Position numbers and translations under genes: made by a program. Source: a virus (taxonomy: Duplodnaviria > Heunggongvirae > Uroviricota > Caudoviricetes). Taken from it: a DNA stretch of 7,594 nt. The stretch's first letter is position 1. Every line of letters starts with the position of its first letter. This document shows, one piece after another, positions 837-7,594 of the stretch. A model generated the notes under the pieces. It was not told where the DNA came from and made no database searches. It saw nothing but the letters and a program-made list of their open reading frames with translations. The stretch lies in the IMG/VR virus record IMGVR_UViG_2778261094_000007. One strand, written 5' to 3'.

Positions 837-1493
837 CTATTTCACTTCTCCGTCATACGTCGGGAGGGTGTCTTTAGTGGTGCTGGCTGTTCCTGCATTG
901 GTTGGCACTCGGCTTTTTACCTGTCCGCCTGTGCTCTTAGGTGATGCGGTCTTTACAGCAATAGCATTAGTGGTTGCATAGCTCACCAGGCGGATTTGTT
1001 CGAACTGCAAATCGAACTGTAAAGCTGATTCTGTTTTATATTCGTAGTCAATGCCTGTCAGAATCATATTATCAAACGTCTTATGCTCTGTGCTTACAAT
1101 AATAGGCTGTCTGGCATTCATTATTTCATCAAGATAAGCAATAGCCTGTGAACACCTGTTACCGTTCACCCCTGCACTTGATAGCATATCACCACGTAAT
1201 GCTAATGGTGTTTCTGTAATAATGCCTGAAAGCATAAGTTTATTATTCTTGATCCTGACATTATCAGATACATCATTACCATCCTGCACAGGATACGATG
1301 TAACATCGGCAGAACGTGAAACCTTAGTTGCCGGAACAGCGTCAAAAGTAATAGCTTTATAACTGGCTATCGTTGATGCATTTTCGTTATTCAGGTTGCT
1401 ACATATAATGGCAAATCCGTTATCAGATTTAACCTTGCTGTTAGATGTATTAATGTTAGATGTGCTGTTGATCTGACTTTCTTTGATAGCCAT
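837..1493 (-). CDS. Hypothetical protein, 218 aa, Asn/Ser/Thr-rich low-complexity termini; possible virion or tail-associated protein (function not established)
   Basis: Long ORF; ATG at 1493 preceded by AAGGA (1507-1503) with 9-nt spacing; last gene of the co-directional cluster, ending at the terminator hairpin. Confidence 0.65.
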   Translation of the reverse strand: MAIKESQINSTSNINTSNSKVKSDNGFAIICSNLNNENASTIASYKAITFDAVPATKVSRSADVTSYPVQDGNDVSDNVRIKNNKLMLSGIITETPLALRGDMLSSAGVNGNRCSQAIAYLDEIMNARQPIIVSTEHKTFDNMILTGIDYEYKTESALQFDLQFEQIRLVSYATTNAIAVKTASPKSTGGQVKSRVPTNAGTASTTKDTLPTYDGEVK

Positions 1494-1515
1494 TTATATT
1501 AATCCTTGTGTAATG

Positions 1516-1544
1516 AGCGGAAAGCAATAAATATTGCCCCCGCT
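1516..1544 (-). promoter_or_regulatory. Nested intergenic stem-loop (outer agcgg/ccgct, inner gcaata/tattgc) between the 633-aa and 218-aa genes
   Basis: Outer 5-bp stem 1516-1520 / 1540-1544 and inner 6-bp stem 1524-1529 / 1532-1537; sits in the 73-bp gap just 5' of the 218-aa gene ribosome-binding site. No U-tract on the minus strand, so more likely an RNA processing or stability element than a terminator. Confidence 0.3.
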
Positions 1545-1566
1545 TTATTATTAGTTATCGTTAAAC

Positions 1567-3468
1567 TTAGTTAACGCTACTCTGTCCTGACAACGTGCTA
1601 AGAATCAGATTCGAACTAAACTGATTGTTGTTCGCTCTGATCTCAGTGCGGATTAAATCCTGAAAGCCGGGACCGTTAGGGATGACGTTAACAGAGATCA
1701 TATCACTCGGCACCGTAACCTGTGCATTCACGTTAACAGGGGTTGCGTATTGACGTTGTAGGCTTACAGTCGGCTGATAGGCTTCTGCTTTACGTGCAAC
1801 AAGGGTTGATCCGTAGCTGTTAGCATTGCCATTAATTAAATCAGTCCACCACCCTGGAACGCCGGACTGTGTTTCCTCACCGCGCACAATACGCCCTACA
1901 TCTCTCGTATCGAGTCCAGTTGCATAACGAATACCTTCATTGATAATCGTTGATGGCGACCATTCCCCATCTGTAACAGCGTCCATAACCTTTTGTGTCT
2001 CAGGTCGGTTATCATTCTCACCACGGCTAAGATGTTTATTAATCCAGCTTGTGATTTGATTCCCGTAAGAAGTCATAGAGGTCAGTAATACAGCGCCTTG
2101 TTTAGCCAAATCCCCGAACGATGCACCAACACCATAAGCTGCATTCTGTAAGGCTTTGCTTTCTTCCGGTTTGAGTGCTGGCATGTTGGCTATGCCATCA
2201 AAGAAGCCCAAAATAGCCTGATTCGATAGTCCATCTGTCAGACGGTCAAAGGCTGTAGCTGTCTTGTTAGCTGCGCGATATTGCTCTTTCTGTGCTTCTG
2301 TCAGTAGCTGCCCGTTGTTTTTCATATCAACCATCGTTTTACGGAACTCTTCCCCATCACGGGAAAACATCTTGAGATAATGGCTGGCATCGTCTGCTAA
2401 TGGTTCGATCAGGGATATGATGGCTTCTTTAGTCATTCCTCGGCGTTCACCTTCTCTCACCACGTCTTGTAGGAGTTGCAGCGGTCGCCCCTGGTAGGAA
2501 GCTATCTTATCTTTGTTCCATGCAAAGGCATTCTGAATATCATTTAATGATCCTTCCCCGCCTCGCCACTCTTTTTTCTTACTATCCCATTCAGCAGTTC
2601 GGCTTTGATGACCAATGCGTTCGTTTAAGTCTTTGATATTATCAGTGGTCTTGTCCGCGCTTGCACTTGATACACCGTTTGCCCTCCCCCAATTAACCAT
2701 TGCAGCCACCTGATTGCTATCGGCACCTACCAGATCGCTCATCTTCTGCAATTCCATACGTTCACGGGCTTTTTCCATTCCAGCAGATACAGCCATACTT
2801 CCTAAGCCAACGGCAGCGCCGCCGATAATGCCACCAACACCGCCCATCATTAACGCGCCACCGCCGCTAACACCTTCTTTGTGGAGCTTCTTAGCAGTAA
2901 CTGGATATACCCCCCCAGCGGCAGCATTACGACGCGTAGCAGCGGCTGCGGCTCGTCTTTCTAATGTGATGCGGTCACGGATCAGGGCATTCATCTTCGC
3001 TTGCGATATAGCGCCGGATTCATAGAGGCGGGTTTGTTCCTTAATGTAACGTAGAGCATCGTGATATTTCTTAATATCCATCCCTTCGCCATAGCGGGAA
3101 TTGTTCTTGATGCCTTGTAACTGGCGATATGATGCAAGGCGCTTGATCTCTGCCTTTTCAGCAATTGAGGCTTGTTTAGCCTGTGCTTTAGCGAGGTTTT
3201 TAGCTTCCTGTAGCTTCTGTTTAGTGCTGGCTTTAGATGCCTGTGTCTCAGATTTAACAGCCTGCTTAACATGCTGATCATGCTGGCGCTGAATCTCTTT
3301 TCCCAGCCTCTGTAAATCTTTCTGACGTGCTGCCGCCACTTGCACAGGTTTGATCCCCTGCATCTTCTTTTGTAGCTTATCCACTTCATTCTTAGCTTTC
3401 TGTAAGCTCTTGAAATCAGTGGTAAATGTCACAACATTACTAATTCGTGAGGCGTTAATTTCTAACAT
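1567..3468 (-). CDS. Large coiled-coil plus glycine-zipper membrane-segment protein, 633 aa; tape-measure-like or ejection/pilot-like protein
   Basis: 1.9-kb ORF. N-terminal ~170 aa are K/Q/A/E-rich heptad-like sequence (coiled coil); aa ~201-231 read GGGALMMGGVGGIIGGAAVGLGSMAVSAG (DNA 2776-2868), a glycine-zipper hydrophobic segment typical of tape-measure and membrane-inserting phage proteins; C-terminal ~400 aa globular. AGGGA 10 nt upstream of ATG 3468. Confidence 0.85.
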   Translation of the reverse strand: MLEINASRISNVVTFTTDFKSLQKAKNEVDKLQKKMQGIKPVQVAAARQKDLQRLGKEIQRQHDQHVKQAVKSETQASKASTKQKLQEAKNLAKAQAKQASIAEKAEIKRLASYRQLQGIKNNSRYGEGMDIKKYHDALRYIKEQTRLYESGAISQAKMNALIRDRITLERRAAAAATRRNAAAGGVYPVTAKKLHKEGVSGGGALMMGGVGGIIGGAAVGLGSMAVSAGMEKARERMELQKMSDLVGADSNQVAAMVNWGRANGVSSASADKTTDNIKDLNERIGHQSRTAEWDSKKKEWRGGEGSLNDIQNAFAWNKDKIASYQGRPLQLLQDVVREGERRGMTKEAIISLIEPLADDASHYLKMFSRDGEEFRKTMVDMKNNGQLLTEAQKEQYRAANKTATAFDRLTDGLSNQAILGFFDGIANMPALKPEESKALQNAAYGVGASFGDLAKQGAVLLTSMTSYGNQITSWINKHLSRGENDNRPETQKVMDAVTDGEWSPSTIINEGIRYATGLDTRDVGRIVRGEETQSGVPGWWTDLINGNANSYGSTLVARKAEAYQPTVSLQRQYATPVNVNAQVTVPSDMISVNVIPNGPGFQDLIRTEIRANNNQFSSNLILSTLSGQSSVN

Positions 3469-3502
3469 GTTAATTGTTTCCCTGTATTATGATTGTTGTT
3501 TG

Positions 3503-3700
3503 TTATTGTTTTTTAAAGCAATAATATTGGATTGCCTCAAAAGTGCTGCATCCAGTCTGAAAGACACGCTGCCGCACATTATTCGAATCAATTGAAAGCA
3601 TTCTGCATAAGGCACTGACATTGATTATTGAGTCATCGCTAATAGCTGCCAGTTCTTTTACAGATTTAAGAATTAATGCCTGTGAATTTTCTGTGTTCAT
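3503..3700 (-). CDS. Small hypothetical protein, 65 aa
   Basis: ORF in the same orientation between the capsid-like and 633-aa genes; ATG at 3700 preceded by a purine-rich GAGAGAAAA stretch; non-low-complexity composition. Short, so uncertain. Confidence 0.45.
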   Translation of the reverse strand: MNTENSQALILKSVKELAAISDDSIINVSALCRMLSIDSNNVRQRVFQTGCSTFEAIQYYCFKKQ

Positions 3701-3826
3701 TGGTTTTCTCTCACATATATATTTTTATTTGGGTTTGTAGACAGTAGAAAAACAAAAAAGGGCAAGAGACAGCGCATATTTTGCTTATATGATTATCCCT
3801 TACCCTTATTGCCCCGATTATTTCCA

Positions 3827-3843
3827 GACGATGGGGAATCGTC
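3827..3843 (-). promoter_or_regulatory. Stem-loop gacgat-gggga-atcgtc 13 nt downstream of the capsid-like gene stop; candidate partial terminator or mRNA 3'-stabilising hairpin
   Basis: Perfect 6-bp stem with 5-nt loop read directly; not followed by a U-run on the minus strand, so not a canonical intrinsic terminator. Confidence 0.3.
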
Positions 3844-3856
3844 TATTAACGCTTTA

Positions 3857-4888
3857 TTACGCAGCAGATCCGAAGATGATAGCTTGCGGAATGTTGTTTA
3901 CTGGCAGATAAGATGTCTCAGTAACCACAGATGGGAATTGGAATTCATCCTTGATTAGATATTGGTGATGTAACACGGCATCTTGACCTAACTCAGCATG
4001 ACGCACACCAACGCCGCTATGAAGCTGGTAACACTGTGCCGCTTTATCCATTACCGGAACAATTGCGAAACCGTTCTCTCCGATGTGAGCAACAATCTCA
4101 GGAAACATTGACACGTCAATAACAGTGATCCCACCAATCTGGAAAGAGTCATAGGCTGGGTTAGAATCAACCATACGGGTAAACAGGGCCGTAGCACTCG
4201 CATCGCCTGCATATTTCACCATGTCACTGATCAGCGGGTTAGATGACAAACCATCAGCAGCAGCGCCAGCAGCAAAGATAATTACACCAGTTCGCTTTGC
4301 AGCAAGACCAGACCCCAGCTTTTCACTCTGTAAGCGCACCGCTTTACGAATAGCAAGGAACGGGTTAACAGTAGTCGATGCAAAGTCGATAGCGGGTACC
4401 GTGGTTTTAGCCTGACCGTCGAGGAAGTCGAGATCACCTTGTCCGGCATATTCAGATTCAACTTTCAGGCCCAGCAGCGCGGTAATCAGATCCACTTCAA
4501 CACGGTTTGCGTGTGAACGGTAATGAGCCTCAGAGAAATCATTAACCGCTACCAGCATAGCATCAGAACGGTTTGGATATTGGCGGCTGTATTGTTCCAG
4601 GTCACGAGAAGTAACAGCGTTAATACTGCCGACGTGTTTCATCTGGAAAAGTTTGTTTGACCATTCCTGACGTTTAGAGGCGTTCCAGTCGCTTTGAGCG
4701 TAAGGCGAGGTTTCCCCAGCTACCTGCACAAACTGATCGATCAGGTCGGTAAGAAGAATGCTGTTTTCTGTATGATATTGCACATCGAACAGATCGAGAT
4801 TAGTAATCAGGGTATTAAGTGCATTCTCATAAGCAAAAGGAGTTACTACCGCAGTATTAACGCCAAAATATGTTGATAAATCATTCAT
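3857..4888 (-). CDS. Putative major capsid protein, 343 aa (size and position compatible with a lambda gpE-type capsid protein; assignment by context only)
   Basis: Long ORF with a strong ribosome-binding site (AAGGAAAATAATA-ATG), directly downstream of a ~127-aa Ala/Val-rich gene in the decoration-then-capsid order seen in lambda (gpD 110 aa, gpE 341 aa); low Cys, rich in A/V/S/T/D. No sequence-level identity to lambda gpE could be confirmed by eye. Confidence 0.8.
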   Translation of the reverse strand: MNDLSTYFGVNTAVVTPFAYENALNTLITNLDLFDVQYHTENSILLTDLIDQFVQVAGETSPYAQSDWNASKRQEWSNKLFQMKHVGSINAVTSRDLEQYSRQYPNRSDAMLVAVNDFSEAHYRSHANRVEVDLITALLGLKVESEYAGQGDLDFLDGQAKTTVPAIDFASTTVNPFLAIRKAVRLQSEKLGSGLAAKRTGVIIFAAGAAADGLSSNPLISDMVKYAGDASATALFTRMVDSNPAYDSFQIGGITVIDVSMFPEIVAHIGENGFAIVPVMDKAAQCYQLHSGVGVRHAELGQDAVLHHQYLIKDEFQFPSVVTETSYLPVNNIPQAIIFGSAA

Positions 4889-4902
4889 TATTATTTTCCT
4901 TG

Positions 4903-5286
4903 TTAAGTCGTAGGGATCGCAAGTTCTTCATAACCAGCAATTACAAAGCCGAGAGATTGCAGTTTTGCAATAACACTTGCCTTTTCCATGCTGTTAAATT
5001 CAATCCCATCTTCAGCCAGAATAACGAAAGTAGGATGTGCAACCACTACGCTTTCCTGTCCTTCATAAGCCGGTTCAACTACTACGTGAGCAATATCAGA
5101 TGCAGTTGTTGCTTTGGTGCCATCGGCTTTCAGCAAAGCCCCGACAATAAGATCGTCAGTGAGAGGTGAAGCCAGTTTGACGAGGCGATCTTGCAGCACT
5201 GGATCAGCAGCGTAAGCTACTACCTTACAGCGTGAACGGGAATTATCCGCATTCACTGCTTTTAATTTTCCATATGGGTTAGCCAT
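4903..5286 (-). CDS. Putative head decoration protein, 127 aa (lambda gpD-like by size, position and loose motif resemblance)
   Basis: ORF immediately upstream of the capsid-like gene (14-nt gap) with the same AAGGAAAATAAT initiation motif; segments SRCKVVAYAAD and GALLKADGT loosely resemble lambda gpD SRKLVAW and GILAVAADQ. Low-confidence function. Confidence 0.75.
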   Translation of the reverse strand: MANPYGKLKAVNADNSRSRCKVVAYAADPVLQDRLVKLASPLTDDLIVGALLKADGTKATTASDIAHVVVEPAYEGQESVVVAHPTFVILAEDGIEFNSMEKASVIAKLQSLGFVIAGYEELAIPTT

Positions 5287-5290
5287 AAGA

Positions 5291-5488
5291 TTATTTTCCT
5301 TTCAGTTGTTTAATTTTAGATTTAAGGGCATCAGCAAGACTAACCGCATCAGCCGATTTAAATAATTGGGCAGTGGTAGAACGAAGACTTTCGGGAGTAA
5401 CTCCCAACAGTGCGGCAACCTTAATGAGGTTTTCATCACTAACAATCATCGTTTCCCCGTCTTTGCTGATAATCATTTCTTGTTTCAT
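5291..5488 (-). CDS. Small hypothetical protein, 65 aa from ATG 5488 (the ORF track extends to a TTG at 5530); first gene of the structural cluster
   Basis: ATG at 5488 is preceded by AGGAA with ~9-nt spacing, whereas the TTG at 5530 has no Shine-Dalgarno and adds a hydrophobic extension that overlaps the upstream hairpin. Its TAA stop (5293-5291) lies inside the ribosome-binding site of the next gene. Confidence 0.6.
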   Translation of the reverse strand: MKQEMIISKDGETMIVSDENLIKVAALLGVTPESLRSTTAQLFKSADAVSLADALKSKIKQLKGK

Positions 5489-5520
5489 AAATAACGTTCC
5501 TGTTAGTGCCAGACAAATAA

Positions 5521-5568
5521 AAAGCCCCAATGCCGTAAGAGGTTAATTCTGACCAGCAAAGGGGCTTT
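5521..5568 (-). terminator. Terminator-like hairpin (stem aaagcccc / ggggcttt, ~32-nt loop) followed on the minus strand by UUUUUAUUUG, ending ~30 nt upstream of the first structural gene
   Basis: 8-bp stem arms at 5521-5528 and 5561-5568 read directly; minus-strand sequence downstream of the stem is ggggctttttatttg. The unusually long loop lowers confidence. Confidence 0.35.
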
Positions 5569-6425
5569 AACGTGCGGGCAATTACATAATTGATAAGTTA
5601 AACTATAAGAGGATTAAACATATCAGCAAATACACTTTTTAAATATACTTGATGATATGCTTAAAGGGTGAATAGATACTCCTGAAAACATGCTCTTAGG
5701 AAAACATGCGGAATCAATCAGGAATATCTATTCGGGGCGCGGTGGCCAACCGCTATCTTTCATGGTGTGGATGCACCAGTCAGATTTTAAGGAATCACTA
5801 TTCCAATCTACTCACAGATTAAATTTTTAATAATGATTAACTACACCAACAGTAATCTACCGTTTCAGAAAATCGTTTTTACAACCAAAGCTTATAGATC
5901 CGCATTCTATAAAACCCGTTTTGCTATCAATATTTCCAAAGTTTATTGCACCATTCTTAGCTAAACTCTCTCTGCTTGCGGCTAACGCTATGCAGATGAT
6001 TGTTTTTGACAACAACTTAATAGATTATTCTGTTACTAACTTCTGTCATTAAATAATAGTTTAATGATGTTAGTAAATAGTTATAAAATATAACTATCAG
6101 TGTAAGGCTCTTTAATGTTTTCTGACAAAATAAGGAGCTTTAGGATAAGCATAGATGAAAAATAAGAGCGGGAAGGGCAAGGAGATAACACCTACCCGCT
6201 TTTATCAAAATTAAGCACAATGCCTAACAACATTCATCAACACAACGTAGAAACAATCAACAATCAAAGAGGGAGTTATGATTATTCTAAAACTTCTTGA
6301 GAGATGGAAGGTAATATTTGTTAGAGGTTAATGCCACTCAACCTTTGAGGCTATCACCTTCCATATGCAGGGATTTATGACAGTAGAAGGATTAACACCA
6401 GTCAAAACCTTTTTATCTACCCCTA

Positions 6426-6445
6426 ATTTCATTATATAATGAAAT
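6426..6445. promoter_or_regulatory. Perfect 20-bp palindrome atttcattat-ataatgaaat; candidate operator or protein-binding site
   Basis: Sequence equals its own reverse complement over 20 bp; lies 28 bp downstream of the 102-aa gene stop in the AT-rich spacer; related ttcattat repeated at 6466-6473. Confidence 0.3.
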
Positions 6446-6472
6446 TGTTATAAATGCAAATGATTTTCATTA

Positions 6473-7041: not shown

Positions 7042-7500
7042 TTAGTTAGAACGTTTGTTAGAAGCTAATGTATCTTCTAAATGAGCCATCAGATCGACTT
7101 CCGATGCACCACCTACACAATTATTGAAAGCGTTAAATCCCAAAAAATGATGATAGGAGCTAAACCCTAAAAGCTGCCAACGTTTCAGAGTGCCATCAGA
7201 AATGATAGTTTGTTTTCTTGTTCTTGGGCGAAAGTAAACGCCTGGCATTGACTGGATTATTTCTAATTCTTCATCGCTTAATTCAGGGGATTCTGCTTCA
7301 AGAATAAATATTATCTCTTCCCCTGGAATTTCGTTATTGGTGTGTGTCGGTGGACGTTGTCTTGTTGAATTGAAGTTACTGTTTTTTTCAATACGTTTTA
7401 AGTTATTACGTTTCTTTTTCCCATTTTCCCTCTTTTTATGTGGATTATAAAAACTTAATGTCATTGTTACGATGAATATCGCCATAAATGCATTTGCCAT
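7042..7500 (-). CDS. Hypothetical protein, 152 aa: N-terminal hydrophobic segment, Lys/Arg/Asn-rich linker, acidic stretch, C-terminal domain
   Basis: 459-nt ORF in ~30% GC DNA where stop codons are frequent; N-terminus AFMAIFIVTMTLSFY is hydrophobic (possible membrane anchor or signal), followed by KKRENGKKKRNNLKR. No clear Shine-Dalgarno before ATG 7500, so the start is uncertain. Confidence 0.55.
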   Translation of the reverse strand: MANAFMAIFIVTMTLSFYNPHKKRENGKKKRNNLKRIEKNSNFNSTRQRPPTHTNNEIPGEEIIFILEAESPELSDEELEIIQSMPGVYFRPRTRKQTIISDGTLKRWQLLGFSSYHHFLGFNAFNNCVGGASEVDLMAHLEDTLASNKRSN

Positions 7501-7594
7501 ATGTATTGCCCGATCTGGGTAATGACTCCAACTTATTGATAGTGTTTTATGTTCAGATAATGCCCGATGACTTTGTCATGCAGCTCCACCGATT

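Follow-up and report, generated by a model that had tools for sequence, protein, structure and literature searches.

A probable terminator at the end of a long structured leader, upstream of the capsid/tail-like operon of a satellite-like enterobacterial island

A terminator placed ahead of the late genes is textbook phage biology. A candidate case is found in IMG/VR virus record IMGVR_UViG_2778261094_000007 (Caudoviricetes), a stretch of 7,594 nucleotides referred to below as the window. An initial annotation, made from the sequence alone, noticed on the minus strand a G+C-rich stem followed by a U-tract in front of the first structural gene, and proposed that this element, here named t2, could act as an antitermination checkpoint. 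The stem and the tract are present at that place. We favor, with a probability of about 0.55, the reading that t2 is a Rho-independent terminator that ends a long leader RNA and forms the last barrier before the promoter-less capsid/tail-like operon of a satellite-like island. The evidence comes from the predicted fold of t2, from the conservation of its position across enterobacterial genera, and from the promoter and the leader that precede it.

The terminal hairpin and its conservation

The outer stem of t2 is formed, on the minus strand, by AAAGCCCC (5568-5561) paired with GGGGCUUU (5528-5521); its core GCCCC/GGGGC is followed by UUUUUAUUUGU, with the U-tract UUAUUUGUCU at 5520-5511. The element has, in consequence, the G+C-rich stem and the immediate U-rich tract of an intrinsic terminator. 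The initial annotation had considered that a loop of 32 nt might leave no stable structure; in the RNAfold prediction this loop is itself paired and not open, through a 5-bp stem, UGCUG (5558-5554)/CGGCA (5535-5531), and a 3-bp stem, AGA/UCU, that closes an apical loop of 7 nt, and the whole is a branched hairpin of 48 nt. By itself this hairpin has a predicted dG of -22.5 kcal/mol, and the 76 nt around it fold at -29.9 kcal/mol (z = -3.5), a value matched by 1 of 200 shuffled sequences. When pair probabilities were computed with 60 to 450 nt of upstream RNA, the stem persisted in every folding context; the eight outer pairs showed probabilities of 0.70-1.0, with six of them at 1.0, the second-outermost at 0.92-0.94 and the outermost A-U pair at 0.70-0.84. 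No segment of 7 nt or more complementary to either arm of t2 was found in the upstream RNA. The consensus terminator scan overlooked t2 because it permits only loops of 3-8 nt. Downstream, 32 nt separate the stem from the ATG (5488-5486) of a 65-codon open reading frame (ORF), whose ribosome-binding site, previously described as strong, is better called adequate (AGGA at 5501-5498, with a 9-nt spacer).

The conservation of t2 was analyzed in a set formed by the window and 22 further loci, which include E. coli variants and loci from Citrobacter, Buttiauxella, Kluyvera, Phytobacter, Scandinavium, Raoultella, Yersinia, Klebsiella, Cronobacter, Pluralibacter and Enterobacter. In 15 of the 16 loci tested the gene that opens the cluster belongs to a single orthologous family; all loci but that of Yersinia have, 32-79 nt before its ATG, a hairpin followed by a U-run. 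The stems are unrelated among loci, as illustrated by GGCGACUUCGGUCGCC followed by UUGUUUGUU, AGGGGCUUUAUUGCCCCU by UUUUAAUC, AAGGCCACGCUAAAUAGUGGCCUU by UCUUUUAU, and AAAGCCGGAAGCUUUCCCCUUCCGGUUU by UAUUUUAUC. A strict scan of the 120 nt upstream of the first gene (perfect stem of at least 5 bp, loop of 3-10 nt, and at least 5 U in the following 8 nt) was positive in 19 of the 23 loci, with the hairpin located 33-79 nt before the ATG, against a background of 0.074 per 120 nt in all the fetched DNA; the window and its close variants L002 and L003 miss the strict scan solely through the expanded loop. Among the relatives whose stem differs, the nearest ones, L016 and L017 (major capsid protein, MCP, 56% and 84% identical, respectively), have at this position terminators that are compact and canonical.

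Within E. coli, three types of the hairpin differ from one another by compensatory changes. In the outer stem a G-C pair is replaced by U-A (AAAUCCCCC/GGGGGAUUU), in the inner stem UGCUG/CGGCA is replaced by GCUAU/AUAGC, and the apical sequence GAWUKAACCUCUUA is invariant across the variants. The fixed position together with the turnover of the stem sequences and the compensatory changes argues for selection of a strand-specific RNA terminator; as read from these sequences, the pattern is not the one expected of an inverted repeat arisen by chance or of a DNA site. A terminator-type hairpin directly before the capsid/tail-like cluster is thus genuine, with a position that is conserved across genera and a sequence that is not. 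We consider it likely that t2 is a functional terminator separating the leader from the operon, at which termination would be efficient in vivo.

The leader, its promoter and the operator-like dyads

The promoter expected by the initial annotation 50-200 nt upstream of t2 is not a conserved feature. Its candidate, TTGCTG-N16-TATAGT, does exist at 5629-5602; it is lost in the E. coli loci L002 and L004, and lies inside a predicted hairpin of ~20 bp (5664-5616). The conserved promoter, named here P_L, is the best one in the window and is found ~0.9 kb upstream. It begins 12 nt past the stop codon of the last early ORF, which encodes an acidic protein of 102 aa, and is oriented toward the cluster, with its predicted transcription start near 6424. 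Equivalent promoters occur at the same place in other genera, in which TTGACA is followed at 17 nt by TATACT, CATAAT, TAGAAT or TAAACT. No sigma-70-like promoter was detected on the minus strand from 5700 to 5489, and no conserved promoter was found between t2 and the start codon across the loci. Given that no promoter fits between t2 and the ATG, the cluster would be transcribed through t2, which is the architecture of an antitermination checkpoint; its expression probably requires that RNA polymerase reads through t2, and the operon would be transcribed solely from P_L, or by read-through from the early operon, in both cases past the terminators. The alternative that the hairpin might be the 3' end of a short small RNA does not hold either, because with the conserved promoter ~0.9 kb upstream the terminated RNA would be large and structured (~0.26 kb if it ends at t1, the internal hairpin described below, and ~0.9 kb if it ends at t2).

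The sequence between P_L and t2, whose length ranges from 0.5 to 0.9 kb among loci, has the properties of a leader that is transcribed. No ORF in it is conserved. At least 80% of it is present, at 86-100% identity, in 271 E. coli genomes, and none of the 40 matches listed, of 283 records, has an annotated gene in it. Its predicted minimum free energy gives z values of -7.6 for the window, -7.3 for Citrobacter and -10.8 for Enterobacter with respect to shuffled controls. An Rfam search with cmscan (E<=1) of the window and 7 related loci assigned the leader to no family and returned merely tRNAs and noise; blastn of the leader against phage genomes yielded no match, and scans of IMG/VR with the loop motif, the leader motif and the MCP profile recovered just the same E. 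coli islands or chance matches.

Two hairpins inside the leader are kept among loci. The first, t1, is an internal terminator-like structure located ~260 nt into the leader; its position is kept while the stems differ, being GGGGCC/GGCCCC followed by UCAUCUUUUU in L016, and GCGGCGG/CCGUCGU followed by UGCUUAUUUU in L017. In addition, loci L007, L021, L023, L025 and L026 have a penultimate terminator ~100 nt before the last one. The second hairpin exposes the invariant loop (U)CCUAAGA on stems that vary by locus (GCAUGU/GCAUGU, GGGUUGGC/GCCAAUUU, GCGGGG/CCCCGC, GGCUGG/CCAGCC and AGGGGG/CUCCCU), a turnover across genera that was tabulated locus by locus and not on one alignment. The corresponding TCCTAAG is the most widely shared non-AT-rich 7-mer of the leaders, present in 8 of 15 lineages.

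Other sequence relations of the t2 loop were observed. Its apical sequence AUUAACCUCUUAC (5535-5547), which includes the anti-Shine-Dalgarno-like CCUCUUA, recurs at 6320-6332 in the 5' domain of the leader and also at 5604-5610, and 6 nt of it could pair with the conserved loop CCUAAGAG (5700-5693). The two loops may form a tertiary or kissing contact; the complementarity (CUCUUA/UAAGAG) covers just 6 nt, and its placement is inconsistent among loci. Separately, the start of the first ORF, UAUCAGCAAAG (5459-5477), is complementary to 5545-5561, the inner 5' strand of t2, and to 5621-5633; this complementarity is not kept in the L002 variant.

P_L is covered by dyads that resemble an operator. 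The sequence TAACAATTTCATTA is one mismatch from TAAC-N6-GTTA, and the -10 box lies at the centre of the perfect 22-bp palindrome AATTTCATTAT/ATAATGAAATT. Perfect copies of TAAC-N6/7-GTTA are located inside the spacer between the -35 and -10 boxes in L016, L017, L006, L013, L025 and L026, and immediately upstream of the -35 box in L011, L012 and L023. In most loci a second copy follows the terminal terminator at ~15-25 nt; that of the window overlaps the Shine-Dalgarno sequence. The window contains 2 matches to the dyad versus 0.24 expected per 7.6 kb. In the 11 loci in which the region from upstream of the promoter to the leader was scanned, the perfect dyads are confined to the two ends of the leader, and scans of whole loci revealed extra copies at the 3' end of the gene encoding the tape-measure-like protein (TMP-like), as in the TMP gene of the phage ESCO13. 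Because the copy at the promoter lies outside the transcript, the dyad is taken to be a DNA site, and its placement over the -10 box agrees with an operator. Two observations argue against a second promoter at the downstream copy: it is not followed by a conserved -10 box, unlike the dyad at P_L, and it stands 3 to 40 nt from the ATG depending on the locus. It was also observed that the promoter/operator segment at 6424-6454 is repeated just downstream of t1 (6057-6087, 74% identity), and the E. coli-type leader may therefore stem from the tandem duplication of an operator-RNA-terminator unit.

Table 1. Features of the window, in positions of the whole stretch
Feature	Position	Strand	Remarks
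Operator-like dyads over P_L	6425-6450		TAACAATTTCATTA (6450-6437) and 22-bp palindrome (6446-6425)
Leader promoter P_L	6431-6460	minus	TTTGCA-18-TATAAT; 10/12 matches
Non-coding structured leader RNA (putative), ~0.9 kb	5511-6424	minus	between P_L and t2
Internal terminator-like hairpin t1	6152-6206	minus	core AGCGGG/CCCGCU, then CUUAUUUUUC; dG -17.4 kcal/mol
Hairpin with invariant loop (U)CCUAAGA	5688-5709	minus	stem sequences vary by locus
Terminal intrinsic terminator t2 (predicted)	5510-5568	minus	branched hairpin 5568-5521 and U-rich tract 5520-5510
Second operator-like palindrome	5492-5505		TAACAGGAACGTTA; 15 nt past the t2 stem
Six-gene promoter-less cluster	837-5488	minus	downstream of t2
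First cluster gene, 65 aa	5488-5291	minus	orthologous family
Second cluster gene, 127 aa	5286-4903	minus	
MCP-like, 343 aa	4888-3857	minus	weak phrog_29 match; homologues carry PF03864 (lambda gpE family)
Fourth cluster gene, 65 aa	3700-3503	minus	
Tape-measure-like, 633 aa	3468-1567	minus	phrog_16051 at 1e-72
Dit-like, 218 aa	1493-837	minus	PF21821

Passage of the terminators and alternative explanations

These elements suggest a gate between the early and the structural genes. Transcription would begin at P_L, a conserved sigma-70 promoter that is probably repressed in the resting island, because the operator-like dyad covers its -10 region. RNA polymerase would then copy the folded leader and meet t1 and next t2, and only the polymerases that pass both would reach the Shine-Dalgarno sequence and the ATG, the end of the leader at which the second copy of the operator dyad is located. 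This passage may be regulated, and there are three candidates for the factor that would allow it: the leader RNA acting in cis, an early protein of the island, or a factor from a helper phage. That t1 and t2 are the object of regulated or active antitermination we rate somewhat below an even chance. As for the way of passage, the lack of a competing partner for t2 and the two serial terminators make factor-dependent, processive antitermination likelier than a hairpin-switch attenuator, and the former is the most likely route. A conserved early protein of ~127 aa, with the basic N-terminus MGRKERNxLKRIE, is the only early one kept family-wide and is a candidate RNA binder.

Among the known systems, the closest in architecture is the late control region of the lambdoid phages (pR'-qut-6S RNA-tR' and the Q protein). 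There, as in the island, a promoter abutted by the last early ORF is followed by a non-coding leader and by an intrinsic terminator placed directly before a promoter-less head/tail operon. Hexamers that resemble a -10 box (TAGATA, TATAGG) lie at about +5 to +15 in several of our loci, where they would be candidates for a sigma-70-dependent promoter-proximal pause. The systems differ in that the lambda leader has 194 nt, whereas that of the island has 0.5-0.9 kb and is extremely structured, and in that the island has two serial terminators and an operator dyad over the promoter. Moreover, no gene of the Q family was found by the late promoter when the early ORFs were compared with Pfam, PHROG, NCBIfam and the PDB sequences. 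The checkpoint that had been proposed stands, in consequence, as regards its architecture, with a second serial terminator that fits it and no promoter between t2 and the ATG; its likeness to the Q/qut type is one of analogy, given that no Q, N or other antiterminator homologue was found in the island. As regards an N/nut-type system, the boxA-like CGCUCUUA at 6170-6163 is the 3' arm of t1, and the UGCUCUUUAC seen in other genera shows covariation as one arm of a hairpin (UGCUUUUUAC in L007). The partial matches to a lambda-type boxA were discarded on these grounds, being hairpin arms or not conserved.

Other systems provide partial parallels. In the put RNA of HK022, which mediates processive antitermination in cis, and in EAR of Bacillus a nascent structured RNA acts upstream of terminators; by analogy, the island leader could make RNA polymerase resistant to the terminators, an action that would explain why a folded leader is conserved ahead of terminators without a switch. 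The put RNA consists of two stem-loops of ~70 nt in total, whereas the island RNA is ~10x larger and bears other motifs, so that a put-like activity is purely hypothetical. In the immunity systems of the satellite or temperate elements P4 (CI RNA, P_LE leader), P1/P7 (c4) and N15 (CA), a leader transcript also stops short of the first ORF and is itself the regulator; nonetheless, these systems control early or antirepressor operons and not structural genes, and rely on seqA/B/C complementarities. The Rfam C4 model (RF01695) gave no match in the cmscan search described above. Riboswitches, T-boxes and attenuators share the intrinsic terminator in a structured 5' leader, and differ in that the leader of the island is far longer; classical attenuation was discarded, since neither a mutually exclusive antiterminator helix nor an Rfam aptamer was found. 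An RfaH/ops-type operon was rejected as well: the ops sequence GGCGGTAGnnTG has no counterpart but ACGGTAGATTAC near 5866-5855 (7/12), which is not conserved in L016 and L017. Finally, the presence of one dyad at the promoter and of another close to the first gene, several hundred bp farther downstream, recalls the auxiliary operators that act by looping (lac O1-O2, gal OE-OI, lambda OL-OR), and the geometry of the sites suggests that the dyads flanking the leader might loop in the same manner.

Several observations weigh against the reading of t2 as a terminator that gates the operon. The hairpin is not compact and does not have the loop of 3-8 nt of an intrinsic terminator; being branched and 48 nt long it is atypical of textbook terminators, and its equivalents in L016 and L017 are short and canonical. 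The U-tract is weaker in the HH107-type variant of E. coli, and in the Yersinia relative L015 the 120 nt that precede the first gene contain no terminator. No antiterminator gene (Q, N, RfaH/LoaP-like) was recognisable in the island in the same protein databases; the ~127-aa early protein has neither a known domain nor a detected homologue, and its AlphaFold model (pLDDT 54) is unusable. In addition, an RNA gene standing on its own would show the same anatomy, a strong leader promoter followed by its own terminators.

t2 may be the 3' boundary of an undescribed class of large (0.5-0.9 kb) structured regulator RNA, specific to a new family of satellite-like islands with homologues of the tail proteins of Phapecoctavirus, and acting either as a processive antiterminator in cis or as a trans-acting or structural RNA; we hold this to be rather unlikely. 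The cis option could mean that only polymerases initiated at the leader pass two or more terminators, whereas in the trans or structural option the terminator could set the ratio of the RNA to the capsid/tail-like proteins.

Another explanation, which we regard as unlikely, is that t2 chiefly ends a large non-coding RNA that stands alone (~0.26 kb to t1, ~0.9 kb to t2). This RNA would be the real product of P_L and would have a function in trans, as a decoy or as a structural RNA, so that the downstream genes receive a fixed, unregulated read-through and t2 is a stoichiometric valve. This is the arrangement of type III toxin-antitoxin loci (ToxIN), in which a terminator between a non-coding RNA and the protein genes sets their ratio. 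A near-consensus promoter dedicated to the leader, its extreme predicted structure, the loop motifs conserved on stems that turn over between loci, and the strong terminators without a switch structure or a recognisable antiterminator are all in agreement with it. Nevertheless, the leader and the operon always accompany each other in one fixed order, 32-79 nt apart, the operon has no other promoter, and serial strong terminators would nearly abolish the expression of six conserved and intact genes unless they were overridden. The island also differs from ToxIN in that it has neither tandem 36-nt repeats of the ToxI type nor a ToxN-like endoribonuclease, and its downstream genes encode homologues of virion proteins.

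The downstream dyad, placed in most loci at a fixed ~15-25 nt after the terminator, raises another possibility, namely that t2 insulates the cluster from transcription coming from the early operon and P_L, and that the cluster uses a helper-phage-specific, non-sigma-70 promoter in the 32-79-nt gap, possibly involving TAAC-N6/7-GTTA. In its favor, the partner indicated by the Dit-like and TMP-like genes is a lytic Phapecoctavirus, and such a phage may reprogramme RNA polymerase; ESCO13 itself has a terminator and then a promoter between structural genes. We consider such an insulator improbable, given that the distance from the dyad to the ATG is so variable, that in the window the dyad overlaps the Shine-Dalgarno sequence and leaves no room for a start site upstream of it, and that the dyad is also found, operator-like, within the sigma-70 promoter of the leader. 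Neither of the promoter types sought in the gap was supported: besides the missing -10 box, the T4-type late sequence TATAAATA follows the terminator in merely 1-3 loci, and a sigma-54 look-alike, TGGCAC (5509-5504), has no -12 GC element and is missing from L002. Lastly, a role of the inverted repeat as DNA, for example as a cruciform or as a protein site in a replication origin or a packaging or recombination site, is very improbable, since, even if the region is AT-rich, non-coding and bracketed by dyads and the island encodes an O-like/DnaD-like initiator, the stems turn over fully while the U-run always follows on the coding strand, G-U pairs are tolerated in the stems, and no iteron arrays were found.

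The island and its implications

The two ends of the window consist of IS2 (1-76) and IS1 (7517-7594) sequence, and the window matches E. coli chromosomes. The intact copies (L001 14510-27829, L002 and L003) form an island of ~13 kb that adjoins a tRNA gene: glyU beside ETT2 in D3, thrW in PE144 and leuX in CE0021a. The order of genes in the island is conserved: a recombinase gene, an early operon on one strand, an ORF-free stretch of 0.5-1 kb, the six-gene cluster, and an integrase gene on the opposite strand. The early operon holds an O-like/DnaD-like initiator with a helix-turn-helix (HTH) motif and several small ORFs. The copy in the window is decayed, as indicated by the IS1 and IS2 insertions, the integrase truncated by IS2, and the gene for the ~127-aa early protein (7042-7500), which has a 1-nt frameshift just past its ATG and an extended ORF with IS1 ~20 nt upstream. 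In intact islands a second ORF-free stretch, of ~1.8 kb, was observed between the recombinase gene and the early operon (L003 3903-5681, equivalent to L001 23720-25494); Rfam gave no match for it.

The Dit-like protein is 63% identical over 180 aa to a gene product of ESCO13, a lytic myovirus of ~150 kb of the genus Phapecoctavirus, and the TMP-like protein is 32% identical to its counterpart in this phage; both counterparts are encoded by adjacent genes, those for the tape measure and gp261 (L202 6001-8817). This resemblance suggests the Phapecoctavirus group as helper or target of the island. Between the tape-measure and the Dit-like genes of ESCO13 there is a canonical terminator and then a consensus sigma-70 promoter, TTGACA-17-TACAAT (L202 7990-8115). 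The MCP-like protein found no match by tblastn in 50,697 phage records. No terminase or portal genes are present in the island, and the NCBIfam and PADLOC searches gave no matches. Carrying only a subset of virion-gene homologues, and with relatives known from 10 or more enterobacterial genera, the island has the appearance of a satellite-like or defence element as yet undescribed; in the literature we found no published description of the island or of its leader RNA, nor of a satellite of Phapecoctavirus.

The t2 hairpin appears to be an element of an ordinary kind, whereas the cassette in which it stands and the surrounding island appear to be undescribed. The unusual part is the cassette: an operator-covered promoter, a structured RNA of 0.5-0.9 kb, tandem terminators, a second operator and a promoter-less operon, kept together in at least 10 enterobacterial genera and absent from Rfam and from the 50,697 phage records. 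If the leader proves to act as an antiterminator in cis, or as a functional large RNA of another kind, it would represent a new class of RNA and also a new way for a mobile element to time the expression of its structural genes; if it is not, the locus would still be a clean example of early/late gating in a new family of elements.

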